A DNA stretch of 64,000 nt from positions 6,724 through 70,723 of the forward strand of contig JAOUNI010000005.1 in NCBI GenBank assembly GCA_029881035.1, written 5' to 3'. Positions 23,934 through 61,440 of the stretch are shown here, piece after piece. The notes under the pieces were generated by a model that did no database searches, was not told the DNA's origin, and saw only the letters and a program-made list of their open reading frames with translations. How positions within the stretch are numbered: position 1 is the first letter of the stretch; every line of letters begins with the position of its first letter. A program made the translations under genes and the position numbers. Origin of the DNA: Gammaproteobacteria bacterium. Lineage in GTDB: Bacteria; Pseudomonadota; Gammaproteobacteria; SZUA-229.

Positions 23934-23945
23934 GAGGAAAAAGAA

Positions 23946-25487: not shown

Positions 25488-25521
25488 GATCTGCGGTTAA
25501 ACAGAGATAACAGGTAGATAA

Positions 25522-26385: not shown

Positions 26386-26389
26386 TTAA

Positions 26390-27832
<1,443 letters not shown>

Positions 27833-27854
27833 CCGCGAGCCGGGGCCCTAGATT

Positions 27855-28274
27855 ATGGCAATGACCATGCATGTTGATATCGTAAGCGCCGAAGTTGAAA
27901 TATACTCCGGTACTATCACTGAGCTTTATGCGCCAGCAGAAATGGGTGAGGTGGGTATTATGCCCAGACATGCCCCGTTGCTGACCAAAATGAAGCCAGG
28001 TGAAGTACGGATAGTTGATCAACAAGGTGAAGTACAATCATTTTTCGTCAATGGTGGCATTCTTGAGGTTCAGCCTCACATCGTTACTATTCTTTCTGAT
28101 ACCGCGATGCGTGCTGCTGACCTTGATGAAGCAGCGGCGATGGAAGTTAAGGCGAAAGCTGAGGCTGCCATGGCAGATAAGAAAACAGATTATGATTATG
28201 CGCGTGCTAAAGCTGAGCTGATTGAAGCGGTTGCTCAGATTGAGACTATTAACAGGTTAAGGAAGAGAAAATAA
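27855..28274 (+). CDS. atpC: F0F1 ATP synthase subunit epsilon
   Basis: 139 aa, last gene of the atp operon. Confidence 0.95.
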
Positions 28275-28312
28275 GTAGTCTGGCAGAAACTAAGTGGTGA
28301 ATCAGCTAAACT

Positions 28313-28344
28313 AAAAAGGTCGGTTAATATACCGGCCTTTTTTT
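28313..28344 (+). terminator. Rho-independent terminator of the atp operon
   Basis: aaaaaggtcggt-taatat-accggccttttttt: an 8-bp stem (one G-U pair) followed by a T7 tract. Confidence 0.8.
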
Positions 28345-28384
28345 ATGCATAATGTAAAGCATTTATAAACATGGTAGATATAGT

Positions 28385-43136: not shown

Positions 43137-44579
43137 ATGAGTGAACAGAAATTGAATTCAAAAATAGAAGCCGGGCTTGAGCAAAAACAGAAAACAGCGA
43201 TATTACTCGTTGATGATGATCCGTTAATTGTTGAAAGTTTAGGTTATTTATTACGCAAACATTATCAGGTAATGGTTGCTGATTCGAGAGCAAAGGCGAC
43301 TAAATTACTGGTTGAGATGGGAGAGCGACCTGCGATTGCGCTGATAGACCTAGGTTTGCCACCTTATCCACATAAGCCTGACGAGGGCTTTGCTTTAATC
43401 AAGGAACTATTAGCTCAGCCGGGTGATATGAAAATTCTGGTGCTATCTGGCCAGGATAACAATGTTAATATCCAGCATGCACTAGCACTGGGTGCTGTAG
43501 ATTTTGTAGCTAAACCTGCTGACCCTCAATTATTACTGGCACGTTTAGATCATCATTTACGTTTACGTGAAATTGAGCGGCAAAGAGCTGTCCAGAAAGA
43601 TAGTTCCATTATTGGTCAAAGTGCCTGCATGGAAGTGATCAGGCAGCAAATCAAACAATTTGCGGATTCACCATTTCCGTTATTAATACAGGGTGAATCA
43701 GGTACTGGTAAGGAAATGATCGCAAAGGCGGTGCATGAGCAGAGTCAGCGCCGATCCGAACCCTTTATGGCCATTAATTGTGCTGCGATAGCGCCTGATT
43801 TACTCGAAGCGCAATTATTTGGGCATCGTAAGGGCGCATTTACTGGGGCCAGTCAGGAGCATAAGGGCTTTTTTATCGAAGCGGGCCAGGGAACATTGTT
43901 GCTGGATGAAATCGGCGAACTACCGCTTGCCCTGCAGGGTAAGCTGCTGCGAGTCATTGAGAGTGGCGAGTTTTACCGTGTGGGCGAAACTCAGCAATTG
44001 AGCTCGCGTGCACGCATTGTTGCAGCGACAAACAAAGTACTGCGAGATGAAGTAGCAGAGGGTAGTTTCAGAGCTGATCTATACCATCGTTTAAGTATTC
44101 TTAATGTCCATATGCCTGCATTGCGAGAGCGAGAGGGTGATTGTTTTCTTCTACTAGATCATTTTTTATCGACATATTCAGACTCTGTGCTGCCATTTGT
44201 ACTGGATGATGAGGCTAGACTTCTTTGGAGTAGCTATGCTTTTCCTGGCAATGTCCGTGAATTACGAAATATTGTTATTCGTTTGGGTACAAAATATCCA
44301 GGAGGGCGGATTGATCGCGCGTTATTAGAAAATGAATTAGAAACGCAGCTGTCAGCCAGTGAATTGTCAGAGGCGAGCCATGTCTTGAGTGATGAATTTA
44401 TCAAACAACAATTAGTATCAGGTGAATTCTCGCTGGATGATTTATTGGCTGAAGTAGAGAGCCGTTGTATCAGGTTGGCATTGGAAATAAACAATAACAA
44501 AGTAAGTAAGGCGGCGGATGCGTTACAGGTTAATCGAACCACGCTCTATAGCCGGGTTCAGAAGCTTGGGAAGCTTTAG
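43137..44579 (+). CDS. Sigma54-dependent response regulator (NtrC family; PrsR/PilR-like)
   Basis: Receiver with ..IALIDLGLPPYPHKPDEGF... AAA+ GESGTGKE, GAFTGA loop and C-terminal HTH. Confidence 0.9.
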   Translation: MSEQKLNSKIEAGLEQKQKTAILLVDDDPLIVESLGYLLRKHYQVMVADSRAKATKLLVEMGERPAIALIDLGLPPYPHKPDEGFALIKELLAQPGDMKILVLSGQDNNVNIQHALALGAVDFVAKPADPQLLLARLDHHLRLREIERQRAVQKDSSIIGQSACMEVIRQQIKQFADSPFPLLIQGESGTGKEMIAKAVHEQSQRRSEPFMAINCAAIAPDLLEAQLFGHRKGAFTGASQEHKGFFIEAGQGTLLLDEIGELPLALQGKLLRVIESGEFYRVGETQQLSSRARIVAATNKVLRDEVAEGSFRADLYHRLSILNVHMPALREREGDCFLLLDHFLSTYSDSVLPFVLDDEARLLWSSYAFPGNVRELRNIVIRLGTKYPGGRIDRALLENELETQLSASELSEASHVLSDEFIKQQLVSGEFSLDDLLAEVESRCIRLALEINNNKVSKAADALQVNRTTLYSRVQKLGKL

Positions 44580-44581
44580 AC

Positions 44582-45919
44582 ATGTATCAGGCACACTTTG
44601 GTCTAGAACGACCACCCTTCAAAATTACTCCAGACACCAGTCTGTTTTTCGAGGGTAGTCAGCGTGGTGCCGCATTAGATGCTTTAATATACGCTGTTAC
44701 CAGTGGTGAAGGTATTATTAAAGTTGTTGGTGAAGTCGGTAGTGGCAAAACCATGCTGTGCAGAATGCTGGAAGTACGTTTGGCAGGTAAGGTTGATATT
44801 GTTTATATTGCTAACCCGAGTTTATCGCCCGATAATATTTTGCATGTTATTGCTCATGAGCTAGGTCTGGAGGTTAATAGCAGTAGTAGTAAGTTGGATG
44901 CAATGCAGCTGGTGCAGACCTATCTACTAAAGAAGCACGCCGATGATAGACAAGTAGTTCTCTTTGTTGAAGAAGCTCAGAGTATGCCTATTGAAACGCT
45001 GGAAGAAATTCGTTTGCTGAGTAATCTGGAAACTGAGCACAGCAAATTATTGCAAATGGTTTTATTCGGTCAGCCAGAACTGGATGAAAAGCTTTCTCAG
45101 GCGCATATCCGTCAGTTAAAAGAACGGATTACTCATAGTTTCTACCTTGACCCCTTCCCACCCAAAGATACGCTGGAATACCTTAATTTTCGTTTGCGCA
45201 GTGTCGGATATCGTGGGCCGGACGTATTTAATCAGAAAACAGCCAATGCAATCGAAAAATATTCGGGTGGACTAACGCGACGAATTAATATTCTTGCAGA
45301 TAAGGCGTTGATGGCTTCCTTTTCTGAGGGTGGTCATGAAGTCACGATAAAACACGTACGTGCGGGTGCTATTGATAGTGATTTTAAAAAGAAGATAAAT
45401 CTACGTATGTGGTTGATAGTAGCTGTAGTATTAACAGGTCTGGCGTTTGCTATGTGGTTGGGTACGATGATTGGCAAATCTGAAGTACATGATGTGGTAA
45501 CTGAGGCGCCAGTAAATACAGCTATTGAGATGGCTGCCAGCCCACAGGTTGGTGTCGTTAAAGCGTCAGATGCGCTAATGAGAAGTCCATTGGAAACACG
45601 ATTATCTGCAACAGAAAACTGGTTTGCTATGGTGCCGGATAATCACTACAGCATACAATTGTTTATGACCCGGATTGTGGATGCTGAAGGTGTTGATAAC
45701 TTCCTGCGTGAGCATCCCGAAATGCTTGATTTTGAACAAATATACATCTATGAAACAATGATTGGTAACATAGAAAGATATAGTGTGCTTTACGGTGATT
45801 TTGCCACCCGTCGGTCTGCGCAGGCAATGCTTGATGGTTTGCCTGCCGAGCTGAAAGAGAGCCAGCCATTTTTACGACGAGTCAGTGCGGTACGTAAGGA
45901 TTTGTCACATAAAGAATAA
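44582..45919 (+). CDS. ExeA/GspA/MshM-like AAA+ ATPase with TM segment and C-terminal SPOR-like domain
   Basis: Walker A GEVGSGKT, DE box LFVEEAQ, TM at about aa 275-297, and a SPOR-like ..YSIQLF...YSVLYGDFATRRSAQAMLDGLP.. region. Confidence 0.8.
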   Translation: MYQAHFGLERPPFKITPDTSLFFEGSQRGAALDALIYAVTSGEGIIKVVGEVGSGKTMLCRMLEVRLAGKVDIVYIANPSLSPDNILHVIAHELGLEVNSSSSKLDAMQLVQTYLLKKHADDRQVVLFVEEAQSMPIETLEEIRLLSNLETEHSKLLQMVLFGQPELDEKLSQAHIRQLKERITHSFYLDPFPPKDTLEYLNFRLRSVGYRGPDVFNQKTANAIEKYSGGLTRRINILADKALMASFSEGGHEVTIKHVRAGAIDSDFKKKINLRMWLIVAVVLTGLAFAMWLGTMIGKSEVHDVVTEAPVNTAIEMAASPQVGVVKASDALMRSPLETRLSATENWFAMVPDNHYSIQLFMTRIVDAEGVDNFLREHPEMLDFEQIYIYETMIGNIERYSVLYGDFATRRSAQAMLDGLPAELKESQPFLRRVSAVRKDLSHKE

Positions 45920-45965
45920 TTGTTAAGCAAGGTAAATTTAAGGAAAAAGGTCTTAACGAATAAAC

Positions 45966-47588
45966 ATGGGTGAACGAATGATAAAAATAATTAAAAATGG
46001 TTTGGTAGCAGGGCTCCTGTTGCTAATAGCGGCGTGCGGAGCTAGCAATCCTCCTGCACCGTCGCAGGGGCATTTAGGTAATGATATTGCATCGTCCGAT
46101 GTTATTCCGGAGCCAGTGATTGAAGCTCCAATACTGCCGGAACCTGAACAGAGACCAAATCTTGAAACCTATACTGTGGTCGTTAACCAGGTTCCGGTGC
46201 GTGAATTACTATTTTCCATGGCTAGAGATGCTAAATTAAACCTTGATATCGACAGCGATATTCAGGGCAAGGTGACGATGAACGCCATTGACCAGACCTT
46301 GCCACAAATTCTGGAGCGTCTGTCGCAGCAGGCTGCAATTAACTATGTACTGGAAGATGAAACCCTGCACATTCGTGCGGATAAACCGTATTTGCATTTG
46401 TACAGTGTCAATTATCTAAATATGGCACGTTTGAGCAAAGGCAGTGTAGAAGTCTCGACAGAAATTAGTTCAACAGGAACTACAGAAGGTGGCTCTGGTG
46501 GAGGAAACAATTCAAGTTCAACGGTGGAGAATACATCCAATAATGAGTTCTGGAAAACGCTGATAGTAAATTTTGGTGCAATTATTGGCGAACAGATGAA
46601 AGTCGGAGCTACAGAAAACAGTCAGAATATTATTGTTAATCGTGAAACCGGTGTCATCGGTGTGCGAGCCACGTTCAGACAGCATAAACAAATCCAGGAA
46701 TTTCTGGATCGAGTGGTTGGCGGTGCACAGCGTCAGGTAATGATCGAAGCAACGATTGCAGAAGTTAAACTGAGTGATCATTATCAGGCTGGCATCGACT
46801 GGTCAATGATTAGCACAGATGCGCTGGGTAATATTACGGATAGTGTTAGTCAAAATTTGCTGGGTGGTAATTTGGGGGCTGCGCCTTTCTTTCAAATAAC
46901 ATCAAGTGGCAGCACTAGTTCGGGTGATCAGATGAATGCAACATTAAAAGCATTGGAAACATTTGGTGATGTAAAAGTTTTATCCAGCCCCAAAGTAATG
47001 GCACTGAATAATCAAACTGCCATGCTGAAGGTAGTCGATAACGCGGTGTATTTTTCTGTTGAGGTGACACCCGCGATAACTAATGCAACCACTGGAGCAG
47101 TTACTAGTCCTGCCACCATCAGTACCGATATCAATACTGTGCCAATTGGATTCGTTATGACGGTGTTGCCATTTATTGATAGCAATGACGTCGTGACCTT
47201 GAATATACGGCCGACTATTTCAAGAATTGTTGATACGGTAAATGATCCGAACCCAGAGTTAGCAAATGCGGGAGTAACCAGTCCGGTGCCTGTAATACAG
47301 GTACGTGAAATTGAATCAGTACTTAAAGTAAATAATGGTGATACGGCAGTGATTGGTGGTTTGATGCAGGACCAGGTAAACAAAAAACAAAGCGGAATAC
47401 CAATTCTGTCTAGCATACCCTGGCTGGGGGCATTGTTTTCTTATCAGGATGATGAATATGTGAAATCTGAACTGGTGATTTTTATTCGTCCTGTGGTTGT
47501 GCATGATGCAAGTTTAACGGGTGACTTAAAAGAATATCGAAAATACCTAATGGAAGATTTCGATGCCAGTACAGCTAAGTCAAAGTAA
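45966..47588 (+). CDS. Secretin, lipoprotein type (MshL-like)
   Basis: Lipobox LLLIAACG. Secretin core ..VLSSPKVMALNNQTA.. and ..IPILSSIPWLGALF... Confidence 0.9.
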   Translation: MGERMIKIIKNGLVAGLLLLIAACGASNPPAPSQGHLGNDIASSDVIPEPVIEAPILPEPEQRPNLETYTVVVNQVPVRELLFSMARDAKLNLDIDSDIQGKVTMNAIDQTLPQILERLSQQAAINYVLEDETLHIRADKPYLHLYSVNYLNMARLSKGSVEVSTEISSTGTTEGGSGGGNNSSSTVENTSNNEFWKTLIVNFGAIIGEQMKVGATENSQNIIVNRETGVIGVRATFRQHKQIQEFLDRVVGGAQRQVMIEATIAEVKLSDHYQAGIDWSMISTDALGNITDSVSQNLLGGNLGAAPFFQITSSGSTSSGDQMNATLKALETFGDVKVLSSPKVMALNNQTAMLKVVDNAVYFSVEVTPAITNATTGAVTSPATISTDINTVPIGFVMTVLPFIDSNDVVTLNIRPTISRIVDTVNDPNPELANAGVTSPVPVIQVREIESVLKVNNGDTAVIGGLMQDQVNKKQSGIPILSSIPWLGALFSYQDDEYVKSELVIFIRPVVVHDASLTGDLKEYRKYLMEDFDASTAKSK

Positions 47589-47600
47589 TTTGAGGTTGTT

Positions 47601-48878
47601 ATGAGCCTGTTACTGGATGCATTAAAAAAGGCAGAGCGAGATAAGCAGAAAGCACGCGAGGCTGAAGAGAGCGCCGTAGAAAGCGACGCTAACCAGTTGA
47701 AAGAACAGGAAGTGATTTTAGATAATCAAGAACAACCTGAGCCTGCTCAGGTTGAGGATATAGGTGAGGAGTTAGAGCTGGTTCTGGATGAGCCTTCTGT
47801 AGAACAGATTGCTATCGAAGAACCTGTACAGGAAGAAGTAAATATTGAAGTTGCTGCACCGCCATCGTCTCCACCGTTGGAACTAGAGAAGAGTGCAGCA
47901 ACCACCACCACAGTTTCCGATGAAGCATTGCAGCTCCTGGTTTATAAAACAAATAAAAGATACCGCCAAAGACAAAAAATAATTTGGGGCAGTTTGTTAT
48001 CTGCCGCTATTGTTATTTTGTTAGTGGCGGGCACTTTTTATTATTATGGAGTACTCGAAGAAATAGAATCGCTGGAAAGAAAACATAAATTATCAATGCA
48101 AGCTGTTCACGCAGAGCCGATAAAGCAACATCAAATAACTGCGCCTGCCGAAGCGGTAGTTAGTGTAAAGGAAATTCAATCAACACAAAATAAATCACCG
48201 TCAAAGCAACTAATAGCAGAAAAACGCCACGTAAATAAAGAAAGACCTTCTGTAGGAGCGGGCAAAAATAAAAGTGATTTTTCAGTCAGGCAAACGACAA
48301 CGAAAGATCCAATAAACGCATTATTAAAAGAAGCATGGCTGGCGTATAACAAAAAAAATTATATTCTGGCTAACGAGCGTTATGAAAGTGTGCTTAGTCG
48401 GGAGCCCAGAAATCGTGATGCTCTTCTGGGTATGGCAGCGATCGCAATTAAAACGGCTAATTATAAAAAGGCGAAAGCTAGTTATAGACTATTGCTTAAG
48501 CTTGATCCACGCGATCAGGTAGCTATGGCAGCGATGTCAAATATTGATGAGCTATCATCGAGTGCTGAGGATGAAAGTAAACTTAAATTTATGTTGCAAC
48601 AGCAACCCACTGCTACTCACCTGAATTTTGCCCTGGGAAATTATTATGCAAAACAAGGTAAGTGGCCAGAAGCGCAGGCAGAGTATTTTAAAGCATGGCA
48701 GGGAAATAGTGAAAATGCAGATTATGTCTACAATCTTGCAGTGAGTTTGGATCAGTTGGGCAAGAAAAATGAGGCGCTACGGTTTTACAAGGAAAGTTTG
48801 TTATTTAGTAGCGAACAAAATGTTGGTTTTTCAGTATCAGACGTTGAAAAACGTATTGAAACAATTTCAGTTAAGTAG
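47601..48878 (+). CDS. GspB/ExeB-like N-terminus, TM and C-terminal TPR protein (MshN-like)
   Basis: MSLLLDALKKAERDKQ N-terminus, acidic linker, TM at about aa 130-150, and TPR repeats at the C-terminus. Confidence 0.7.
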   Translation: MSLLLDALKKAERDKQKAREAEESAVESDANQLKEQEVILDNQEQPEPAQVEDIGEELELVLDEPSVEQIAIEEPVQEEVNIEVAAPPSSPPLELEKSAATTTTVSDEALQLLVYKTNKRYRQRQKIIWGSLLSAAIVILLVAGTFYYYGVLEEIESLERKHKLSMQAVHAEPIKQHQITAPAEAVVSVKEIQSTQNKSPSKQLIAEKRHVNKERPSVGAGKNKSDFSVRQTTTKDPINALLKEAWLAYNKKNYILANERYESVLSREPRNRDALLGMAAIAIKTANYKKAKASYRLLLKLDPRDQVAMAAMSNIDELSSSAEDESKLKFMLQQQPTATHLNFALGNYYAKQGKWPEAQAEYFKAWQGNSENADYVYNLAVSLDQLGKKNEALRFYKESLLFSSEQNVGFSVSDVEKRIETISVK

Positions 48879-48884
48879 ATATTT

Positions 48885-50594
48885 ATGGATTCGCTAGATA
48901 ATAATCAAAAACCAAAAAAACTTTTTGGCGAGCGACTGGTTGAAAAAGGCCTTGCTACCGTCGACCAGATAGAGATTGCATTAACAGAGCAAAAGAAAAA
49001 CGGTCGTCTGATAGGCGAAATCCTGGTTTCACTAGGTTTTGTCTCAGAATCTGTCATGAGGGATGTGCTAGGACAGGTTTTAGGTATAAGTAGTATCGAT
49101 CTCAAAACTGTAGTGCCTGATTCATTAGCACTTGAGCTAGTGCCAAAAGAAATTGCCGAGAGGCATGTAGTTGTCCCTATTAGTTATAACCCGGAGACAT
49201 ACCACCTAAGATTGGCGATGAAAAATGCATCTGATCTTCAGGTGCTTGATAGAGTGCATGCTTTAGTTGGTCGCAAGATTGAAATTACACCTTTTGTATC
49301 GGGTGAAGGTGAAATTAAGAAAGCAATTGATCAATTTTACGGTTATGAGCTTTCGGTAGACGGCATTCTGCATGAAATAGAGACAGGTGAAATTGATTAT
49401 AAAAGTCTTGATGCAGTTGAAGATGAATATAGTCAGCCACTGATCAGATTGGTAGATGCGATTCTGGCAGACGCTGTGAAACGTGATTCTTCGGATATAC
49501 ATTTTGAACCTGAAGAAGGCTTTTTGAGATTGCGATATCGTATAGACGGTGTATTAAGGCAGATTCGAAGCCTCCACAAAGATTATTGGTCGGCTATTGT
49601 TGTACGACTTAAAGTTATGTCCGGAATGAATATTGCGGAAACACGGATTCCACAGGATGGACGTTTGAGTTTGCAGGTACAAGGGCATCGTGTTGACTTT
49701 CGCGTTTCGGCACAGCCAACAACACATGGTGAGAATATTGTTCTTCGTGTTCTGGATCGCGCAAAAGGTATTGTGCCACTTGAAAATTTAGGCTTGCATG
49801 AAGATACATTGAATACATTAAAGATGATGATGGCACGGCCAGAAGGAATTATTCTGGTAACCGGTCCAACAGGTAGTGGCAAGACTACAACACTTTATTC
49901 GATGTTAAATTATGTCAAATCCGAAGAGGTCAATATCATGACACTGGAAGATCCAGTGGAATATCCGGTTGATATGATTCGTCAGACATCAATAAACGAA
50001 GTAGCTAGAATGGATTTTGCAAACGGTATTCGATCAATGATGCGTCAGGATCCCGATATTATTCTGGTGGGCGAGGTACGAGATGAAGACACAGCAGAAA
50101 TGGCGTTCAGAGCAGCTATGACCGGTCATCAGGTGTTGACTACGTTACATACTAATTCAGCGATTGGTGCCATACCAAGATTGCTCGATATAGGCGTACT
50201 GCCCGATATTATGACAGGAAATATCATCGGCATAATCAGTCAGCGTTTAATCCGTCTGCTGTGCAAGCATTGCAAAAAAGAAACATGGTCCGATGTCATA
50301 GATAGCAAGTTATTGAAAGTGAATGAGCCAGTAAAGATATACGAGCCTGCTGGATGTGAGCATTGTGAAAATACTGGCTACAAGGGACGTATTTCAGTTA
50401 TGGAAGCATTAACAATTGAAGCTGAGCTGGATGAGTTGATTGCAAAAAGAGCAACACTGGGTGAATTGAAGGAATGTGCGCGCCAATCGGGCTATAAAAC
50501 ACTAGCTGATGATGCCATAAGAGTAGTTAGAGCAGGGTTGACTTCGTTGCCAGAAGTAGCGCGTGTGATCGATATGACACAGCGACTTAAATAA
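48885..50594 (+). CDS. GspE/PilB-family assembly ATPase with MshEN-type N-terminal domain
   Basis: Walker A GPTGSGKTT, Asp/His boxes and a tetracysteine CKHC..CEHC. The N-terminus carries tandem 24-residue MshEN-like motifs. Confidence 0.92.
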   Translation: MDSLDNNQKPKKLFGERLVEKGLATVDQIEIALTEQKKNGRLIGEILVSLGFVSESVMRDVLGQVLGISSIDLKTVVPDSLALELVPKEIAERHVVVPISYNPETYHLRLAMKNASDLQVLDRVHALVGRKIEITPFVSGEGEIKKAIDQFYGYELSVDGILHEIETGEIDYKSLDAVEDEYSQPLIRLVDAILADAVKRDSSDIHFEPEEGFLRLRYRIDGVLRQIRSLHKDYWSAIVVRLKVMSGMNIAETRIPQDGRLSLQVQGHRVDFRVSAQPTTHGENIVLRVLDRAKGIVPLENLGLHEDTLNTLKMMMARPEGIILVTGPTGSGKTTTLYSMLNYVKSEEVNIMTLEDPVEYPVDMIRQTSINEVARMDFANGIRSMMRQDPDIILVGEVRDEDTAEMAFRAAMTGHQVLTTLHTNSAIGAIPRLLDIGVLPDIMTGNIIGIISQRLIRLLCKHCKKETWSDVIDSKLLKVNEPVKIYEPAGCEHCENTGYKGRISVMEALTIEAELDELIAKRATLGELKECARQSGYKTLADDAIRVVRAGLTSLPEVARVIDMTQRLK

Positions 50595-50595
50595 A

Positions 50596-51804: not shown

Positions 51805-51824
51805 GCTGAGGATGATTAAAAACA

Positions 51825-53405: not shown

Positions 53406-54012
53406 GAAGTTATATATTCATCCTCAAATAAGAAAGCCACTAATTCTTTTTGTGTTAGTAACCATTTTTTCAACTATTATCATTGCAGTTTCAGATTTCT
53501 ATTTGAACAATGCATTTGATAGCCGTGAATCAGCAAATAGAGCCATGAGACTATGGAAGAATAAAATAGATGGCTCAAGAGAGAGCAATAGGATTATCAA
53601 TGAGTATGAAAAACGATATCTTGATCTAGTTAAAAATAATATTGTCGGTGAGGAAAATAGGCTTAATTGGCTGGAAACAATACAGGCCACGGCAAACATA
53701 AAGGGCATGTCATCAGTGAAATATAATGTTAGCAGCCAACGCCTGGTTGAGGACAAAACAGGTCAGCACGCAGCACAAGGATTAAAAGTGTATCGTAGCG
53801 ATATGACATTGGACATGAAAATGGCTCATGAAGGTGATTTGTTTGAAATGTTAAACACACTGGAAAACAAAGCGCAGGGCCTTTTTATTGTGGATAAATG
53901 TAATATTGAAAATTATGGTGCGCCATCTAAAAGTGGTAGTGAAAATATGCATGCATATTGTGAGTTAGCCTGGTATACCTTTAAGTCGGCTGATAATCAT
54001 GGGCAAAAATAA
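53398..54012 (+). CDS. Bitopic assembly protein, GspM/PilO/MshJ-like by architecture only
   Basis: 204 aa with an N-terminal TM, a coiled segment and a small alpha/beta domain. Overlaps the upstream gene by 8 nt. Confidence 0.5.
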   Translation: MNKKLYIHPQIRKPLILFVLVTIFSTIIIAVSDFYLNNAFDSRESANRAMRLWKNKIDGSRESNRIINEYEKRYLDLVKNNIVGEENRLNWLETIQATANIKGMSSVKYNVSSQRLVEDKTGQHAAQGLKVYRSDMTLDMKMAHEGDLFEMLNTLENKAQGLFIVDKCNIENYGAPSKSGSENMHAYCELAWYTFKSADNHGQK

Positions 54013-54013
54013 T

Positions 54014-54418
54014 ATGACAAATCAGATAAAAACGCTGTTGTCTTTGAGTTTTGTTCTGTCACTACAGGTCTCGGCGCAGGAATACAGTGAGCAGTCACTA
54101 AAAACTCTATTTACCAATCCTCAGGAGAGACAGATGATTGATGGTAATAGAAGTAATCATTCATCAAGTGATCAAGTTCTGGCTACGCCATCTAGTGTAC
54201 AAATTAATGGCATAGTAAAACGTAGTAATGGGAAAAGCGTAGTCTGGGTTAATGGAAAAAACACCATGGATACTACAATGACAGACGGTATCAAGGTGTA
54301 TTCAGGTTCAATTAAATCAAATAACAAAGTACCAGTGCTAATTGATGGTAAAAAAATCTATATCAAACCCGGTGAAACCTGGTCAGAAGACACTGGCGTT
54401 TCTGATGTTGGAAAATAG
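54014..54418 (+). CDS. Small exported protein, PilP/MshK/GspC-HR-like by position
   Basis: Start set at MTNQIKTLLSLSFVLSLQVSA-QE (signal peptide), one nt after the upstream stop. Confidence 0.45.
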   Translation: MTNQIKTLLSLSFVLSLQVSAQEYSEQSLKTLFTNPQERQMIDGNRSNHSSSDQVLATPSSVQINGIVKRSNGKSVVWVNGKNTMDTTMTDGIKVYSGSIKSNNKVPVLIDGKKIYIKPGETWSEDTGVSDVGK

Positions 54419-54447
54419 TCTCTAACGGCGAGTTAAATCACGTTGTC

Positions 54448-55734
54448 ATGTCCTCCAGAACGTCAGTTAAAACATTAAAGAATCAGCAGGGCATGGCATT
54501 GCTGGTTCTAGTAATTACTATTGTTTTAGCGTTCGCTGCCTATTCGTTGTCGGGTCTTTCTGTTAACAAGGTAAAAACCGATAATAAGAAACAAACAAGG
54601 ATGGCATTAAAAAAAGCCAAAGATGCGTTATTAGCTTATGCCATAAGTTATCCAGAGATTACAGGATCTATTAGAGGCCCGGGGTATTTGCCTTGTCCGG
54701 ATTTAAATAATAATGGGAAGACAGGGGCAAATGATTGTGAGACTGGCGGTGTTCCTAATGTAGGTCGATTACCATGGAATACTCTGGGTGTTGATGATTT
54801 AAGGGATGGTACGGGCGAAAGGTTGTGGTATGCCGTTTCGAGAAATTTTGATTATAGTAATAGCCCAACAGTAAACAAAATAAATTCAGCGACAATAGGA
54901 ACGATTACATTTAAAGATAATAACAATGTTGTGATATATGATGGAACATCATTAGATGCAGTTGTCGCAGTTGTTATCGCGCCAGGCGAAGCACTAAAAA
55001 GAGATAATGGAGTTGTGCAAAACAGGTCAGCAGTTACAGAAAATGATCCGGTTAATTATCTAGATATGGTCACTAGTGTAGAAGATAATGCGAGCTTTCA
55101 GCATGGCACTTTGGATGGTTTTATTGAAGGTGAAATAAAAAATGGCGGTGGTAATGTTATTGTTAATGATCAATTTATTGTGATTACTTATGGTGAAATT
55201 ATGGAGGTAGTTCACAAACGCGTATCAAGAGAAATTAGCAATGTAATTAATACGTATCTTGCAACTTGTGACGCTTATCCTGAGGCCTCCGCATTCGACC
55301 CTACTAAAGCATCATATGATAGTGCGGGTTTTGCGCCTCCCGCTGAGTTGAGGCAGGGGCATTTGCCATTGGATACAGCATTTCCAACAAATTGGGGCGA
55401 TATGTGTGGTCTGAATACGGCGCCTGTTCCCCCTGCATGGTTGAAGGCAGAGAATTGGGATAGAGTATCATATTATGCATTTGCATATCAGAATGCCCCG
55501 CCAGCAAATGGTCTTTCATGTGGTAATGGGACAAACCCACCCTGTATGACTGTAAATAATACAAATCCGTTAGTTAATAATGCGCAGGCTCTGATAGTGT
55601 TTGCTGGTCGAGATATAACAGGCAACAGGCCAAGCATTGTCATGAGCGATTATTTTGAAGGTGACAACAATGATCTTGACGATGTATATGATGCAGGTGA
55701 AGCAGAGGATCACGTTACTGTGGTGACGCCATGA
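54448..55734 (+). CDS. Large GspK-like minor pseudopilin lacking Glu5
   Basis: N-terminus ..NQQG-MALLVLVITIVLAF.. resembles the GspK/PilX class (no Glu at +5). 428 aa. Confidence 0.6.
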   Translation: MSSRTSVKTLKNQQGMALLVLVITIVLAFAAYSLSGLSVNKVKTDNKKQTRMALKKAKDALLAYAISYPEITGSIRGPGYLPCPDLNNNGKTGANDCETGGVPNVGRLPWNTLGVDDLRDGTGERLWYAVSRNFDYSNSPTVNKINSATIGTITFKDNNNVVIYDGTSLDAVVAVVIAPGEALKRDNGVVQNRSAVTENDPVNYLDMVTSVEDNASFQHGTLDGFIEGEIKNGGGNVIVNDQFIVITYGEIMEVVHKRVSREISNVINTYLATCDAYPEASAFDPTKASYDSAGFAPPAELRQGHLPLDTAFPTNWGDMCGLNTAPVPPAWLKAENWDRVSYYAFAYQNAPPANGLSCGNGTNPPCMTVNNTNPLVNNAQALIVFAGRDITGNRPSIVMSDYFEGDNNDLDDVYDAGEAEDHVTVVTP

Positions 55735-56528
55735 AGAATAATATGAATACGAGAGGCTTTACTCTCGTCGAGTTAGCAATCGTATTGGTAATTATTGGTG
55801 TATTGCTGAGTGGTTTTATCGGTACATTGGCATCCCGGATTGAAATTACACAACGTGATAATACAAAAGAACAACTCGAAGATATAAAAACTGCGATTTT
55901 GGGTTTTGCTGGTGCACATGGCCGGTTACCCTGTCCTACCACAACAACGGGTGCAGGACAGGAACAGCCAGTTGGTGGCGGTGTTTGTGCATTACAACAT
56001 GGTTTTGTACCAGGTAAAACATTGGGGCTTAACGGTGCCTACAATAAAGATGGATTATTGATCGATACCTGGTCTAATCCGATTAGGTATAGCGTAACAA
56101 CTGATAGTGTATTTACTACAGATTCAACGCCAGGAGCTGGTGGTATGAAGGATATGGGAATGGCGGCTTTAACCCCAGATTTAGTTGTATGTGATGGTAA
56201 TAGCGCTTCTAATGTTGATTGTTCAGCAGGAATAAATAAATTAACAGACAATGCGCCATTTATTGTACTTTCATTAGGCAAAGATGGTAGTGATTTTGTA
56301 ACGAATATAGCGCCGAATTCAGATCAGGGAGAAAACGCAGGTGAGGCGGCTGTTGTAGCTAATGCAGCAGGAGAAAATCTAGCCTACACAGTGGGTAATA
56401 ACAGGGTGTTTGTTAGTAAGAGTTTTAGTGGTGTTGGTGCAACTGCCGGACAGTTTGATGATTTAATAGTATGGGAGTCACCTTATATTCTGTATAGCCA
56501 GATGATAGAAGCTGGTCAGCTTCCTTAG
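55731..56528 (+). CDS. Type IV prepilin-like protein (265 aa)
   Basis: Canonical N-methylation site ..TRG-FTLVELAIVLVIIGVL.. with Glu5. Confidence 0.85.
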   Translation: MKNNMNTRGFTLVELAIVLVIIGVLLSGFIGTLASRIEITQRDNTKEQLEDIKTAILGFAGAHGRLPCPTTTTGAGQEQPVGGGVCALQHGFVPGKTLGLNGAYNKDGLLIDTWSNPIRYSVTTDSVFTTDSTPGAGGMKDMGMAALTPDLVVCDGNSASNVDCSAGINKLTDNAPFIVLSLGKDGSDFVTNIAPNSDQGENAGEAAVVANAAGENLAYTVGNNRVFVSKSFSGVGATAGQFDDLIVWESPYILYSQMIEAGQLP

Positions 56529-58204
56529 TTCGTTACCTGCTGCTCCAGTTTAAAACAAACGCGCCCATCAGCATTTTCGTACAATTCCAGTTCAATATTG
56601 TGGTTCCTGGCCTGTTGCTGACATTGATATAAGCCAATTCCAAAACCATCTTCTGATTCAAGTGGTGCGGTAAATATAGTCGCAGCTAATTGTTCGGGTA
56701 TGGCTTTGCCGGTATCGCGTACGGTAAGCCTAACGTGATTACTTCGACATTCCAGAGTTACAGTAATTTCTATATTTTGTTGGAGAATGCGTTTGTTTCG
56801 GGCATTTTCGAGCAAGTTTTCAATGATGCTGTCATAAACATCAATGGGTATCTTGAAGTCACATTCAACATTTTCAATGAAGTCAATATTGCGACGGTTA
56901 TAACGTACCTTAAGTTGATTCCACCAGTGTGAGATAGGCGAAGTTTTAGATGGCTCCGGTTTTGGTGTAGAAAGTTTATCCAGAGTTGTTTTTAATCGTT
57001 GTGTCAAAAGAGGTAGTTGCTGTTGCAAAATAATTTGTACATCTTCAAGTCGAGTGTCTTTGTCGAGCGCGATCTGTGTCATGGTTTGCGTTGATTGTAA
57101 AATGTTTTTAACATCATGGGTTAGTTTGGATCCCGTTTCATAAATCGCACGTAGATGCGCCTGTTTGATAAGTTGCTGTTCCTGTAATTTTGCTTTGTAA
57201 TAAAAATTTAAAACACCGAGTAATAATTTTGTATGTAGTAATAGAGCCGGTCCGATAGGGCTATATGCGTATAACGTAATATTTAGTTTATCGTCAGAAT
57301 AAGTCGTCGAGTGCGCGCTTTTTTTTCCGTATGATTGTTCCTGGTTATGTTCATGCCAGAATATACCGCACACCCAGGGCCGGGTAATCAGGTGTTGAAT
57401 GCTGGTTTGAAGAAAATGCTCAGGTTTGATCGAAGTATTAGCTTCAATAGCTGCAAGCCTTGAAAGCCACTCTTCAAATGGACCACCAATATTGAGTAAA
57501 TATTTTTCCCAGAGCTGAGCTAACCCGGAAAAACCAGCACGAGGTGTCCACAGTACCGCAGTGGCCAGAAGAAATAATGCGGCAATTAAAATGGTAATAA
57601 CTAGTGAATGTAAATAGGGCGTTTTAGATGAAAATGTAGTGAGGACGCTGCCCATGCATAAAAATAGTGTAAGGATGACCACAAAGAAACCGCGGATAAA
57701 ATCGATGTGAGAGATTTGTGTTTTTCTCGAAGGTATAAAAAGAAGTATCAGTGATAGTGCAAGCAAGGCGAATTCGGTGACTGTTTTTAATTGTTTTGAT
57801 AGCCCTGATAATCCGAAGAGAGTGGGATTAATAATAAGTGTTAGTTCAAGAAATAGAATAATAACGGCCAGGCCATACGCGGCTCGACCTATGCCTCGAG
57901 CAAATATACGTCCAGTGAGCAGGCTAAGCAATAACAGCATCCAGAATGTGCTGATCCATAGATTGAACCATGATATAAAGATAAGAATAAAACCAGTTAG
58001 AAGTGTTAGATTAATCCAGCTGAAACTTTGCTCCTGTTTCAAAACAGGCTGCCATAGCAGGAACAGACCAAAATGAGTAATTAAGAAGCTATATGAAAGA
58101 TAGTTATCTGGACCTATATAAATAGCCATCAATAAACTGAATAGCATCAACCCGAGTAATTGATGCTCAAAATTTGAAAAACGACTGGCTGATAGCAAAG
58201 GCAT
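56525..58204 (-). CDS. Polytopic sensor histidine kinase (PrsK/PilS-like)
   Basis: About 235-aa multi-TM N-terminus. H-box ..KLTHDVKNILQS... HATPase G-boxes ..RDTGKAIP.. and ..GFGIGLY... Confidence 0.88.
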   Translation of the reverse strand: MPLLSASRFSNFEHQLLGLMLFSLLMAIYIGPDNYLSYSFLITHFGLFLLWQPVLKQEQSFSWINLTLLTGFILIFISWFNLWISTFWMLLLLSLLTGRIFARGIGRAAYGLAVIILFLELTLIINPTLFGLSGLSKQLKTVTEFALLALSLILLFIPSRKTQISHIDFIRGFFVVILTLFLCMGSVLTTFSSKTPYLHSLVITILIAALFLLATAVLWTPRAGFSGLAQLWEKYLLNIGGPFEEWLSRLAAIEANTSIKPEHFLQTSIQHLITRPWVCGIFWHEHNQEQSYGKKSAHSTTYSDDKLNITLYAYSPIGPALLLHTKLLLGVLNFYYKAKLQEQQLIKQAHLRAIYETGSKLTHDVKNILQSTQTMTQIALDKDTRLEDVQIILQQQLPLLTQRLKTTLDKLSTPKPEPSKTSPISHWWNQLKVRYNRRNIDFIENVECDFKIPIDVYDSIIENLLENARNKRILQQNIEITVTLECRSNHVRLTVRDTGKAIPEQLAATIFTAPLESEDGFGIGLYQCQQQARNHNIELELYENADGRVCFKLEQQVTN

Positions 58205-58267
58205 CGTTATTTGCCTACAATTGCCCTTGGTAATATTTGTTTAAATTCCATAAGGTATAGCGATTTC

Positions 58268-59038
58268 ATGTTTTCTAAAGTACTGACGATATCGAAATTT
58301 ACCATAATTGAGTCGTTGCGTAATCGATTGTTGTGGCTATCACTATTAATGATGGTGATTGGTTTCGTGCTGGTTGAATTTGTTGGTGATCTTGCCATTA
58401 CTGAACATAAAGCAACTCAGTTAGCAATATTAGCGGTGTTTCTTAGATTAAGTGCCGTTTTGTTAATGTCATTATTTGTGGTATCGAGTAGTTTGCGTGA
58501 GCTTCAGGATAAAACGCTAGAAATGATATTGGCTATGTCGATCAGGCGAAGTAGTTATTATTTAGGTAAGTTACTTGGTTATATTCAGCTCGCTGCATTA
58601 ATGGGTCTGGCTTTTGGCTTGATATTGATAATTTACGCGCCATTTGAGCAAGTTCTGATCTGGTCTGTATCATTGATTTTTGAATTAGTATTGGTAGTGG
58701 CGTTGGCTTTGGTGATGTTATTTACCTTTAAACAAACACCAGCAGCATTGACTGGAGTGTTTATAATTTACCTGGCATCACGCATTGTCGCTTCTCTGTA
58801 CCTGATGTCACAGCATCCTATTATTTCTTATGACAATATTGGGCAGAAGTTTATGGATGGATTTGTTGGCATGATGACCTGGGTTTTGCCTGATTTGAGC
58901 CAATTTACCCAAACTGAGTGGCTGGTATATGAAACAGCAGACTGGTCTCAGTTATTGCCTGTATTGGCTCAGACGGTAATATATCTGGGTCTTTTATCAA
59001 TGATTGCGCTGTTTGATTTTTACCGGAAAAACTTTTAA
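58268..59038 (+). CDS. ABC-2 family permease (NosY/PilI-like)
   Basis: Start set at MFSKVLTISKFTIIESLRNR... Six predicted TM segments. Confidence 0.75.
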   Translation: MFSKVLTISKFTIIESLRNRLLWLSLLMMVIGFVLVEFVGDLAITEHKATQLAILAVFLRLSAVLLMSLFVVSSSLRELQDKTLEMILAMSIRRSSYYLGKLLGYIQLAALMGLAFGLILIIYAPFEQVLIWSVSLIFELVLVVALALVMLFTFKQTPAALTGVFIIYLASRIVASLYLMSQHPIISYDNIGQKFMDGFVGMMTWVLPDLSQFTQTEWLVYETADWSQLLPVLAQTVIYLGLLSMIALFDFYRKNF

Positions 59039-59763
59039 TGCTAAATGCCTTGTTCAATAAAGACAGGCCATTGCGGGATGTGCCGATATCTATAAGTCTA
59101 TTTTTAGTTGTGGCTCTGGCATTGCAACTGTTATGGCATAACCAGCAAGGTGTAAAAGTAGCTCAGGCTGAAGATCTCCCCGCTCCGCTGTCGGCGGATG
59201 CTTACAGTATGGCTTCATTAAAAGAACCCATTGCCATGTCAAAGTTGCTAAATTTGTGGTTACAGGCTTTTGATAATCAGCCCGGTTTGAGTCTTTCATT
59301 CCACCAGCTTGATTATGTACGGATTACGCAGTGGTTAGATGTCATTATGGAGTTAGATCCAAGAGGGTCTTATCCTATGCTGGTTGCAGCGAGAGTTTAT
59401 GGTCGTGTTACAGATAAAACACGGCAGCGTATTATGCTGGATTACATCTACCAGAAGTTTAATGAAAATCCAAACAGGCATTGGCGATGGTTGGCACATG
59501 CGGCAACTGTGGCAAAGCATAGTTTGAAAGATATGCATTTAGCACTGGAATATGCACGTGCATTATCAGAAAAAGCTACAGATAAACATGTGCCCTATTG
59601 GGCGCGTGATATGCATTTTATTTTATTGGAGGATATGGGTGAAATTGAAACTGCCAAGGTTCTGGTAGGTGCTTTAATTGAAAGTGGTGACATTAATGAT
59701 CCATATGAGCTGCGTTTTTTGACTGAGAAAATCCGTGAATTGGAGGAAAAATCGACAAACTAA
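59038..59763 (+). CDS. Membrane-anchored protein of unknown function
   Basis: 241 aa with an N-terminal TM. Its start shares a base with the permease stop (TAATG). Confidence 0.6.
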   Translation: MLNALFNKDRPLRDVPISISLFLVVALALQLLWHNQQGVKVAQAEDLPAPLSADAYSMASLKEPIAMSKLLNLWLQAFDNQPGLSLSFHQLDYVRITQWLDVIMELDPRGSYPMLVAARVYGRVTDKTRQRIMLDYIYQKFNENPNRHWRWLAHAATVAKHSLKDMHLALEYARALSEKATDKHVPYWARDMHFILLEDMGEIETAKVLVGALIESGDINDPYELRFLTEKIRELEEKSTN

Positions 59764-59838
59764 GTCTAAACTGTTGATATTTCGACAGATAAGACGGATT
59801 TTTTATAAATAACAGGATTGTATCGCTGGTTTTGTATG

Positions 59839-59854
59839 TGGCATGATAATTGCT
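59839..59854 (+). promoter_or_regulatory. Sigma54 (RpoN) -24/-12 promoter
   Basis: TGGCATgataaTTGCT has GG-N10-GC spacing matching the TGGCAC-N5-TTGCW consensus. It lies 62 nt upstream of the prepilin ATG. Confidence 0.7.
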
Positions 59855-59915
59855 TTGAAAGAAAGTAAGTAAATAAGATTAGTCAAATAATAAAAATTAT
59901 TAAGGTGTCACTATT

Positions 59916-60644
59916 ATGAGTACGCATACACGAATGAGAAAACAGTTGAACAGGCAAAAGGGTTTTACCCTGATCGAAATTGCAATTGTATTAGTTATTA
60001 TCGGCCTGTTACTGGGTGGCGTGCTAAAAGGACAGGAGTTAATTAATACTGCACGCGTACGTGCTTTGAATAACAGTGTGGATGGGATTACAGCGGCCTG
60101 GTTTAGTTTTCAGGATCGTTACCGCTCGTTCCCTGGTGATTACCTTACAGCCAGGGCAGTTGTTAATTTACCAAAAGTGACCGCCGGTGGTAATGGTGAT
60201 GGCCAGGTTCTAACGCCAGCAGAGCGTGGTCTTGCCTGGGTGCATCTGCAGGCTGCGGGTTATATTACCGGTGGTTATACTAATAATGCAGCGTCTATTG
60301 CTGATGCTGACTTATATGTTTGTAGTACTGTCTTATGTCCAGATAATGGTTTTGGTTCGGGCATGGTTATCGCTCACGGTAAGGTTCAATATGATTCAGT
60401 AGCCGCTACAGTTTCTGCACATGAATTAATTACCGGGCAAGGTGTCCCCGTAGATGTATTAGCTGAGTTGGATCGAAAAGTGGATGATGGTGTTGCTGGT
60501 GCTGGTTTGATGCAAATAGGCCTGGGTGGTACTACCTGGACAACCGCGATGGCAGCTGCTTGTGTTAGCCTTGTAGGTACTGTTAATGAATACCAGTTGC
60601 AGACGCCGAGTGATAATTGTGCAGCGGTATTTAGAAACTTCTAA
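59916..60644 (+). CDS. Type IV prepilin (242 aa), candidate major subunit
   Basis: ..RQKG-FTLIEIAIVLVIIGLLLGGVLKGQELI.. with Glu5. It has its own RBS aaggtg, a sigma54 promoter and a strong terminator. Confidence 0.85.
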   Translation: MSTHTRMRKQLNRQKGFTLIEIAIVLVIIGLLLGGVLKGQELINTARVRALNNSVDGITAAWFSFQDRYRSFPGDYLTARAVVNLPKVTAGGNGDGQVLTPAERGLAWVHLQAAGYITGGYTNNAASIADADLYVCSTVLCPDNGFGSGMVIAHGKVQYDSVAATVSAHELITGQGVPVDVLAELDRKVDDGVAGAGLMQIGLGGTTWTTAMAAACVSLVGTVNEYQLQTPSDNCAAVFRNF

Positions 60645-60666
60645 TTGCATTGTATTGGTGTGATAT

Positions 60667-60699
60667 AAAAAGAGCCCTATTAATTGGGCTCTTTTTTTG
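60667..60699 (+). terminator. Rho-independent terminator after the prepilin gene
   Basis: aaaaagagccc-tattaatt-gggctcttttttt: a 7-bp GC-rich stem followed by a T7 tract. Confidence 0.8.
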
Positions 60700-60729
60700 T
60701 GCTGATGCCTAAAGAAATATTATAAGTTT

Positions 60730-61440
60730 ATGAAAGTTATCCAATGTAAAAATTTAATAAAATTCTACGGCTCAAAAAAAGTACTCGATAATATTAGTCT
60801 ATCAGTCGAACAGGGCGACTTTTTTGGTTTGGTGGGTATGAATGGCAGTGGCAAATCCACTATGATCAAAGCCATGTTAGATCTTGTATCGATTGATGGC
60901 GGTGAGATTGAACTATTTGGTGAATCACACCGTCAAGTCTCATCAAGAAAGGACATAGCATATCTGCCAGACCGTTTCTCCCCGCCGCCGCACTTAAAAG
61001 GCAAAGATTTTGTACGTTACATGATAGAGCTACAAGGCCATTCATTTGATGAAGAAAGAATTAATTCTGTATTTGATGCACTGGAGTTAGATAAAGCAAC
61101 AATACAGGCATCAGTGAGTAGTCTTTCTAAAGGAATGACACAAAAATTGGGTTTGGCTGCTTGTCTGTTGAGCGATAAAAAGTTGCTCATGTTGGACGAA
61201 CCAATGAGCGGTCTGGACCCGAAGGCTAGAGTATTATTTAAAAAAGAATTGCAGAATAAAAAACAAAAGGGTTTATCAGTATTTTTTAGCTCGCACGTAC
61301 TAGCCGATGTCGATGAAATGGCAGATAACATTGCAGTATTACATGCCGGCAGATTTATGTATGTCGGGAGTGCAAATGGCTTAAAAGAAAAATATAAAAC
61401 GAATGTGCTTGAAGATGCATATATGCAATGTATTAGTTAA
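60730..61440 (+). CDS. ABC transporter ATP-binding protein (PilH-like context)
   Basis: Walker A GMNGSGKST, signature LSKGMTQK and Walker B LLMLDEP. Confidence 0.9.
   Translation: MKVIQCKNLIKFYGSKKVLDNISLSVEQGDFFGLVGMNGSGKSTMIKAMLDLVSIDGGEIELFGESHRQVSSRKDIAYLPDRFSPPPHLKGKDFVRYMIELQGHSFDEERINSVFDALELDKATIQASVSSLSKGMTQKLGLAACLLSDKKLLMLDEPMSGLDPKARVLFKKELQNKKQKGLSVFFSSHVLADVDEMADNIAVLHAGRFMYVGSANGLKEKYKTNVLEDAYMQCIS

Follow-up and report, generated by a model that had tools for sequence, protein, structure and literature searches.

What kind of machine is encoded by an 18-kb block of type IV filament genes on a gammaproteobacterial contig, and does the ATP-binding cassette (ABC) transporter embedded in that block belong to it? 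The locus occupies positions 43137–61440 of the window, the 64-kb stretch of contig JAOUNI010000005.1 analysed here, to which all positions refer; L-numbers denote related loci, and identities are relative to the window copy. All 16 genes of the initial annotation were recovered from the open reading frame (ORF) list at their coordinates. Eleven of them, rather than the twelve first counted, run on the plus strand across 43137–56528, with spacing that ranges from a 14-nucleotide (nt) overlap up to 46 nt; a convergent minus-strand gene (56525–58204) and then four plus-strand genes ending at 61440 follow, and the locus is flanked by gpsA/trmL on one side and ntrC/ntrB on the other. Family scans and motif searches bear out that these are genes of a type IV filament, that the locus brings along a sigma-54 two-component circuit of its own, and that an ABC transporter is embedded in it. 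As a whole, the locus is best explained as a pilus machine of the mannose-sensitive haemagglutinin (MSH) class, with a fibre of a 242-residue (242-aa) pilin, PilS/PilR-like control and a PilGHI-like ABC accessory, a reading to which we assign a probability of about 0.65.

The 11-gene operon, headed by a response regulator, encodes the machine itself (TM, transmembrane segment; TPR, tetratricopeptide repeat; Glu5, glutamate at position 5):

43137–44579, plus strand: sigma-54 enhancer-binding response regulator (Pfam Response_reg, Sigma54_activat at 218 bits, HTH_8)
44582–45919, plus strand: MshM/ExeA-like AAA+ protein, bitopic with a periplasmic C-terminal domain (AAA_22, 98 bits)
45966–47588, plus strand: MshL-type outer-membrane secretin, a lipoprotein (TIGR02519 MshL; Pfam Secretin, 137 bits)
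47601–48878, plus strand: bitopic TPR protein, placed where MshN would be (matches to several Pfam TPR families, residues 230–400; one TM, 127–145)
48885–50594, plus strand: extension ATPase with an N-terminal MshEN domain (T2SSE, 433 bits; MshEN, 54 bits)
50596–51804, plus strand: inner-membrane platform of the MshG/PilC/GspF family (Pfam T2SSF in two stretches, 161 bits)
51825–53405, plus strand: PilM/GspL-like 526-aa assembly protein (AlphaFold2 and Foldseek)
53398–54012, plus strand: bitopic 204-aa protein (one TM, 14–32)
53999–54418, plus strand: small secreted periplasmic 139-aa protein (signal-peptide-like N-terminus MTNQIKTLLSLSFVLSLQVSA/QE)
54448–55734, plus strand: 428-aa large pilin-like protein without Glu5 (N-terminus QQG/MALLV)
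55731–56528, plus strand: 265-aa prepilin (N_methyl, 29.8 bits; G/FTLVE at residue 9)

The MSH class comprises mshA, mshE, mshG and mshL plus mshM, almost always in a single locus, in which a prepilin peptidase never occurs and from which mshA may be separated as a loner; its clade includes beta- and gammaproteobacterial as well as Chrysiogenetes systems (Denise et al. 2019; PMC6668835). Here, the secretin scored 263 bits against the MshL equivalog TIGR02519 (cutoff 250), the sole curated equivalog passed in the locus, and carries the lipobox IAAC at residues 21–24; it fell below the cutoffs of the other secretin equivalogs, with 160 bits for GspD (351) and 105 for PilQ (284), and the SctC models failed as well. 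MshE and MshG are represented by family-level matches. In addition to its T2SSE and MshEN domains, the ATPase matches the c-di-GMP motif domain NF053729 (59 bits, above the cutoff of 38), and its N-terminal domain aligns with MshE 5HTL (56 bits) and with the c-di-GMP-binding MshEN domains of PilF and PilB; Walker A lies at residue 327 and CxxC motifs at 460 and 491. Its top NCBIfam match, GspE (514 bits), missed the cutoff of 630, as PilB (504 bits) missed that of 676, and its PDB scores against PilF (435 bits), PilB (393) and GspE (363) do not resolve its clade. The top NCBIfam match of the platform, GspF, likewise stays under its cutoff (295 against 424 bits). MshM is matched at family level only, through AAA_22 and an ExeA-like architecture with Walker A at residue 50 and a single TM at 279–297; the nearest NCBIfam model, TIGR03015, scored 211 bits under a cutoff of 324. 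The periplasmic tail of this AAA+ protein has a weak, sub-cutoff SPOR match (E = 0.006), and the domain may bind peptidoglycan. The class pilin would be the 242-aa N_methyl prepilin, encoded in its own unit within the same single locus.

As initially annotated, the locus itself holds neither a prepilin peptidase nor PilT according to family scans of its proteins, and none was found among ten further window ORFs of matching size. By definition the MSH class lacks a peptidase in the locus, so the missing pilD and pilT are canonical and no anomaly. Describing the locus as a mixture of MSHA-like and type II secretion system (T2SS)-like parts was an overstatement: MshL was passed, whereas all T2SS equivalogs were missed (GspD, GspE and GspF with the scores given above, GspG with 35 and 25 bits against 89), as were those of type IVa pili (T4aP), PilQ and PilB. 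A GspB-like label for the TPR protein also had to be dropped, since it shows TPR repeats only and no T2SSB/GspB match. In the regulator, GAFTGA is found at residue 233 and the receiver aspartate, in IDLGLP, at 70; its best NCBIfam match is PrsR (341 bits, under the cutoff of 502). Catalytic and signalling motifs are undamaged in the regulator, the kinase, both ATPases and the AAA+ protein. On these sequence features, the locus fits an MSH-class type IV pilus, an intact, rearranged and widespread variant of a known machine.

The three genes after the platform had been described as coding for motif-less proteins. This holds for Pfam and NCBIfam, which contain no match to any of the three, yet the 526-aa member models as a PilM/GspL-like fold. 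Although its family profile found nothing significant among PDB sequences either, its AlphaFold2 model (pLDDT 74, built on 15 homologues) runs from an actin-like domain at the N-terminus through a long helix, part of it the membrane segment, to an alpha/beta domain at the C-terminus, and Foldseek matched it in the PDB to PilM (5eox, E = 9e-12), to FtsA and to EpsL/GspL, in the last case to the cytoplasmic domain (1yf5, E = 5e-7). As modelled, the protein is a PilM/GspL-type machine anchor, its actin-like domain cytoplasmic, fused to a periplasmic domain, and it is predicted to be a functional analogue of MshI or of a PilM–PilN fusion. MshI is expected to share this architecture. The 204-aa gene adjoins the 526-aa gene in nearly all loci; its family profile found nothing in the PDB or Pfam, and an hhalign comparison with the C-terminal half of the 526-aa family, a check for a PilN/PilO-like pair, aligned the TM helix only. 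From position and topology, we infer a PilO/MshJ/GspM-like role for this protein and, on the same grounds, a PilP/MshK role for the 139-aa protein, the gene of which probably starts at the ATG at 54014 and is kept across loci; its family profile likewise found nothing in the PDB or Pfam. Five conserved proteins of the locus are without a Pfam or NCBIfam model (51825–53405, 53398–54012, 53999–54418, 54448–55734 and 59038–59763).

The distribution of the locus was followed through the 526-aa protein, for which 363 close homologues, and 582 more by a profile of distant members, are nearly all unnamed. An exhaustive profile search returned 1,865 clusters at 50% identity, 1,303 of them at E ≤ 1e-10; the cluster names of ten distant relatives were uninformative. 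A scan of 185,579 species representatives, in which each GTDB species is represented by one genome, gave 174 loci, and locus details come from 80 of these, all in metagenome-assembled genomes (MAGs) labelled Gammaproteobacteria, Thiotrichaceae, Arenicellales, Cellvibrionaceae, Pseudomonadales, Sulfuricellaceae and Gallionellaceae. The complete 16-gene order is present in about 20 MAG loci with 526-aa proteins 46–73% identical to that of the window. Conservation of the block in related genomes, which the initial annotation had proposed to check, was thus found. Chance falls far short of explaining the block, whose order recurs on MAG contigs that are independent of one another and number in the dozens. 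In one related locus, L043 (CP070838.1), runs of 100 N lie at 5011–5110 and 9655–9754, one of them just upstream of the PilM-like gene; its lack of the upstream half of the pilus operon is probably a scaffolding join or masking, not biology. In a cultured organism, Sideroxydans lithotrophicus ES-1, the 11-gene core operon is present and is followed by unrelated genes; it runs from the regulator through M, L, N, E and G to a PilM-like protein of 493 aa, after which come two proteins of 198 and 122 aa, a large pilin-like protein (595 aa) and a pilin (225 aa).

Downstream of the operon lies the unit that would supply the main fibre subunit:

56525–58204, minus strand: polytopic histidine kinase (HATPase_c, 49 bits; H-box HDVKN at residue 363, G-box at 520)
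59772–59787, no strand assigned: palindromic upstream activator site TGTTGATATTTCGACA, a putative regulator site (only exact match in the window)
59839–59854, plus strand: sigma-54 (−24/−12) promoter TGGCATGATAATTGCT (one mismatch to TGGCAC-N5-TTGCW)
59916–60644, plus strand: 242-aa prepilin, the proposed major pilin, monocistronic (N_methyl, 34 bits)
60667–60699, plus strand: intrinsic terminator after the pilin gene (11-bp stem AAAAAGAGCCC/GGGCTCTTTTT, then a T-run)

The 242-aa prepilin gene is separately transcribed, as had been proposed, with its own sigma-54 promoter upstream and a strong terminator downstream. The 152-bp spacer 5′ of the gene holds both the palindrome, which begins 67 nt upstream of the promoter, and the promoter, which stops 61 nt short of the pilin ATG. 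The terminator was found by reading the sequence and then confirmed by folding: its GC-containing hairpin folds as RNA at −19.8 kcal/mol (z = −3.64 against shuffles). A consensus scan for promoters and terminators missed it, and sigma-70 sites were unenriched in that scan. The sigma-54 consensus was unenriched across the window as well, with 46 matches against 44 expected from shuffles, and of these matches the site upstream of the pilin gene is the only supported one, because it is conserved across loci.

In related loci, the promoter pattern TGGYAY-N5-TTGCW, with no more than one mismatch, recurs at a comparable position: 25 of 29 kinase-bearing loci have it upstream of their pilin homologue. 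The palindrome (TGTYRA-N4-TMRACA), searched in 631 kb of related-locus DNA, is present in 25 of 33 loci with 29 matches, all of which appear to sit upstream of a pilin homologue, because the total from the per-locus upstream regions (29) equals that from the whole loci. Neither element was found in L050 and L065, which lack kinase and regulator alike; the same holds for L071 and L072, which yielded no kinase and whose regulator region lies outside coverage. Since the cis-elements covary with the regulator and kinase, this co-occurrence and co-loss being the main evidence, we infer that the pair drives the pilin gene through sigma-54. The distance from the palindrome to the −24 element is mostly 78–79 or 88–89 nt, with 67 in the window and 109 in one locus; these steps of about 10–11 nt, approximately one helical turn, are what would be expected if an activator must keep to one face of the helix. 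A polytopic kinase with at least six TM segments within residues 60–218, a GAFTGA-bearing sigma-54 activator and a −24/−12 promoter with an upstream site together reproduce the logic of PilS/PilR, and the logic only: by sequence, regulator and kinase are closest to PrsR and PrsK, far below the cutoffs of those models.

The 242-aa protein is one of three pilin-like proteins (428, 265 and 242 aa) in the locus, the number given in the initial annotation. Its N-terminus, GFTLIEIAIVLVIIGLLLGGVLKGQELINTARVRALNN, is near-invariant across loci and alone matches known pilins (geopilin, MshA 9lab and PilA); cysteines lie at residues 136, 141, 216 and 235. It shares the prepilin motif G/FTL[IV]E with the 265-aa prepilin, which we propose is either a minor pilin or the core operon's ancestral pilin. 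All relatives of the 428-aa protein keep the N-terminal pattern Q[KQ]G/[ILMV]ALLV; of its earlier description as GspK-like, this pattern and the missing Glu5 stand, and the rest is left without support, as the family profile found nothing in the PDB or Pfam.

The three subunits differ in how fast they appear to change. Among loci with a 526-aa protein at least 45% identical to that of the window, median identity is 81% for the ATPase, 74% for the platform, 67% for the regulator, 66% for the ABC permease, 65% for the 241-aa protein encoded next to it and 64% for the 242-aa pilin, and falls to 36% for the 265-aa pilin and 33% for the 428-aa protein. Identity of the 265-aa pilin is bimodal (31–36% in 20 loci, 55–73% in 16) and independent of backbone relatedness; in L005 and L006, for example, the 526-aa protein is 72% identical in both, and the 265-aa pilin 73% in one versus 34% in the other. 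Two allelic classes distributed in this way suggest recombinational exchange. In L081 (7060–8820), the 428-aa homologue contains an inserted legume-lectin domain (PF00139, 32.8 bits, cutoff 26.3), which hints at carbohydrate binding at the pilus tip. The 428/265 pair, hypervariable within an otherwise conserved backbone, may thus form an exposed, exchangeable tip cassette in which the 428-aa protein would be the tip or initiator subunit and an adhesin.

Whether the transporter genes belong to this machine is the second part of the question. They frame the pilin gene as follows:

58211–59038, plus strand: ABC-2-type permease with six TM (ABC2_membrane_3, 23 bits, under the cutoff of 31.6)
59038–59763, plus strand: 241-aa membrane-anchored helical-repeat protein (one TM, 15–33)
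60730–61440, plus strand: ABC transporter ATPase, the presumed permease partner (ABC_tran, 89 bits)

The permease is likely to start at the ATG at 58268, where the gene call on the source contig also places it, giving 256 aa; in ORF coordinates its stop overlaps the start of the 241-aa gene by one base, at 59038. The AlphaFold2 model of the 241-aa protein is all-helical (pLDDT 71.5) and returned only weak, generic TPR-like Foldseek matches (E ≥ 0.15); none of its 1264 homologues is named. In the ABC ATPase, Walker A lies at residue 36, the signature LSKGM at 132 and Walker B at 152. Its gene starts 30 nt past the pilin terminator and therefore probably relies on read-through from the sigma-54 promoter.

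The strongest rival to our reading is an ordinary MSH pilus beside which the ABC-2 transporter and the 241-aa protein are a functionally separate neighbour, exporting a polysaccharide, a lipid or a toxic compound and kept in place by shared regulation or inheritance. The core operon does occur without the module, in Sideroxydans ES-1, L064, L080 and L072 (the last of which retains the pilin only), the ABC proteins match generic ABC-2 families only, and xapD in the Geobacter pilus region has been described as a sugar ABC transporter (PMC5585712). However, when the 27 loci whose downstream DNA extends for 5.5 kb or more were mapped by tblastn and blastp, 24–25 of them had the permease, the 241-aa protein, the pilin and the ABC ATPase immediately behind the machine (permease kept in 24, ABC ATPase after the pilin gene in 25). 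The module still trails the machine in L050, L065, L068 and L069, where the 526-aa protein is 27–37% identical; L065 retains it without the regulator, the kinase or the 428-aa gene and with different flanks, so that the association includes loci with differing surroundings and identities of 27–28%. In every module-bearing locus, moreover, the pilin gene sits between the transporter genes, and in the window the probable read-through ties the ABC ATPase to the pilin promoter. With these points set against it, we regard a separate neighbour as unlikely.

A bolder alternative runs in the opposite direction: the ABC-2 transporter and its TPR-like partner would be obligate filament parts that act directly on the major pilin, in insertion, extraction or quality control, with the kinase sensing the membrane pilin pool. 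We consider this doubtful and offer it tentatively. If true, the locus would encode an 'ABC-assisted type IV filament', and the set of kinase, sigma-54 regulator, pilin and ABC genes found in MSH and deltaproteobacterial T4aP clusters would be a transferable 'pilin supply module'.

A third possibility, that the machine is T2SS-like and a short 242-aa pseudopilus capped by the 428-aa protein pushes substrates through the secretin, seems improbable. It could draw on the GspK-like N-terminal pattern of the Glu5-less large pilin, on a major subunit conserved as GspG is, on the presence of just three pilin-like genes, on GspE and GspF as top NCBIfam matches of ATPase and platform, and on the resemblance of the 526-aa protein to the GspL cytoplasmic domain; an ExeA-like AAA+ protein is a further likeness to T2SS. 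However, all T2SS equivalogs, GspD, GspE, GspF and GspG included, stay below their cutoffs and MshL passes; no GspC-like protein or candidate exoprotein was found in or beside the locus, nor were GspM or GspH/I/J identified; the MshEN domain of the ATPase is of a kind that pilus ATPases typically have; hypervariability and, in one member, a lectin domain make the 428-aa family fit an exposed adhesin; and the 242-aa pilin, with two cysteine pairs, is much longer than the 134-position GspG model. A PEP-CTERM/exosortase exopolysaccharide system, suggested by best or listed NCBIfam matches to PrsR (341 bits), the XrtA-associated ATPase (211), PrsK (34) and PrsT (36), was rejected as very improbable, because all four scores are far off their curated cutoffs (502, 324, 300 and 312 bits), the locus genes include neither an exosortase nor a glycosyltransferase nor a PEP-CTERM protein, and the remaining genes are unambiguous type IV filament parts.

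Several observations weigh against the composite of MSH machine, 242-aa fibre, PilSR-like control and ABC accessory. In betaproteobacteria, Sideroxydans among them, the core operon is found where kinase, ABC module and this pilin are all missing, so the module is not essential to the machine as such. The 242-aa pilin is about as conserved as core machinery (median 64%), a level seldom expected of a major pilin that is exposed, and nearer to that of a T2SS pseudopilin. The 204-, 139-, 428- and 241-aa proteins are without detectable homologues of known function, and placement in the MSH class relies on one curated equivalog plus gene content. Finally, despite the presence of regulator and kinase, no clear promoter was found in L013, L035, L061 and L068, and no clear palindrome in L042, L054, L061 and L068.

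Comparison with described systems separates what is known about such a machine from what is new. The V. cholerae MSH archetype is arranged as mshHIJKLMNEGF-BACDOPQ, with seven pilin-like genes (mshBACDOPQ). Shared with it are an MshL-type secretin, an MshM/ExeA-like AAA+ protein, an MshN-like TPR protein, an MshE-type ATPase with a c-di-GMP-binding MshEN domain and an MshG platform, all in a single locus with no peptidase or PilT inside. The gene order differs, as the initial annotation had observed: I-J-K-L-M-N-E-G-F in V. cholerae, and here M-L-N-E-G followed by the assembly proteins. Those proteins are unrecognisable by sequence in the window, no MshF-like gene was identified, and there are three pilin-like genes instead of seven. 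Further departures from V. cholerae are a sigma-54 regulator at the head of the operon, a polytopic kinase after it, a sigma-54 promoter on the major pilin gene and an attached ABC-2 transporter.

The core has a close described relative: MSH-homologous clusters with 'significant gene rearrangement' were mentioned for ES-1 and Gallionella ES-2, with data not shown and no experiments (Emerson et al. 2013; PMC3770913). The ES-1 cluster shares the 11-gene core operon, with a PilM-like protein only about 25–30% identical to that of the window, and differs in having no kinase, permease, 241-aa protein, 242-aa pilin or ABC ATPase downstream. The proposal that the locus follows no described archetype therefore fails for the core and stands for the attached genes: in the searchable literature, we found no description of the conserved attachment of a kinase, an ABC-2 transporter, a 241-aa protein and a sigma-54-driven pilin. 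No member of the rearranged subtype appears to have been studied experimentally.

For the attached genes, the nearest parallel is one of architecture only. The T4aP cluster of M. xanthus combines PilS–PilR–pilA sigma-54 regulation with PilGHI genes near the pilin gene. In both systems, as we read the window, a polytopic kinase and a sigma-54 activator govern a separate major pilin gene, beside which lie an ABC ATPase, an ABC-2 permease and a third protein of unknown fold. They differ in the machine (T4aP in M. xanthus, MSH here), in the position of the pilin gene, which here lies between the transporter genes, and in the PrsR/PrsK-like identity of the regulatory pair here. In M. xanthus, the PilGHI ABC transporter is reported to be indispensable both to the translocation of pilin and to piliation (PMC3724824; PMC6060248). 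In Geobacter, pilC and pilS carry the numbers GSU1493–1494, and a few genes further on in that numbering comes the ABC gene xapD (GSU1501), which has been ascribed to sugar export (PMC5585712). What is new here, as far as the searchable literature shows, is a PilSR-like sigma-54 unit on the major pilin gene together with a conserved ABC-2 module.

Under the MSH reading, the observed parts, their order and conservation, the cis-elements and their covariation can be assembled into the following scheme, every functional step of which is reasoned from them. Binding of c-di-GMP to the MshEN domain would license the ATPase, which the PilM/GspL-like protein and the platform would hold, with the 204-aa and 139-aa proteins completing the inner-membrane alignment complex. 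The Glu5-less 428-aa protein and the 265-aa pilin would prime the fibre and finish at its tip as adhesin; the 242-aa pilin would be polymerised into the main fibre and exit through the MshL secretin, whose passage through the wall the ExeA-like and TPR proteins would probably aid. Kinase and regulator would set pilin supply through the palindrome and the sigma-54 promoter, as PilS/PilR do on pilA, and read-through of the terminator would couple ABC ATPase synthesis, at a low level, to that of the pilin. By analogy with PilGHI, the ABC-2 transporter and its translationally coupled, periplasmic helical-repeat partner would most likely be an accessory for pilin handling or assembly, or else would export a co-factor. 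Pilin processing and any retraction would be carried out by a peptidase and an ATPase encoded elsewhere, as in other MSH systems.

Other features of the window lie apart from the locus. A second ABC-2 pair (ABC2_membrane, 114 bits, with ABC_tran) is encoded on the minus strand at 1261–2975, far from the pilus genes. A 668-aa protein with TPR and ankyrin repeats (4750–6756, minus strand) lies in DNA of low GC content (0.38–0.39, against 0.48–0.54 on either side), and its gene may have been acquired horizontally. At 11896–16552 (minus strand), a DmsC-like membrane anchor, the only protein scanned there, is followed by 243-aa and 969-aa ORFs in what looks like an operon for a DMSO-reductase-family molybdoenzyme. 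Judged by ORF lengths alone and their order, 16861–29746 (plus strand) may hold mnmG, rsmG, parA, parB, an atp operon and glmU, which would suggest that the window lies near the replication origin; GC skew is positive over the entire window. A 1153-aa ORF with a TTG start (31219–34680, plus strand) has no Pfam match at E ≤ 1e-5, and Rfam yielded zero matches in the window.

Work on MSH-type pili has, to our knowledge, been confined almost entirely to Vibrio, Shewanella, Aeromonas and Pseudoalteromonas. The rearranged subtype is common, and frequent in uncultured gammaproteobacteria of marine sediments and vents and in iron- and sulfur-oxidising betaproteobacteria, that is, in habitats where attachment to particles and minerals matters. 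Its proteins without a family model are candidates for annotation resources and for type IV filament (TFF) detection models, and the unit of palindrome, promoter, pilin gene and terminator gives a directly testable regulon. The conserved ABC module, for its part, adds to PilGHI of Myxococcus a second and independent case for studying why an ABC transporter is required by some type IV pili.

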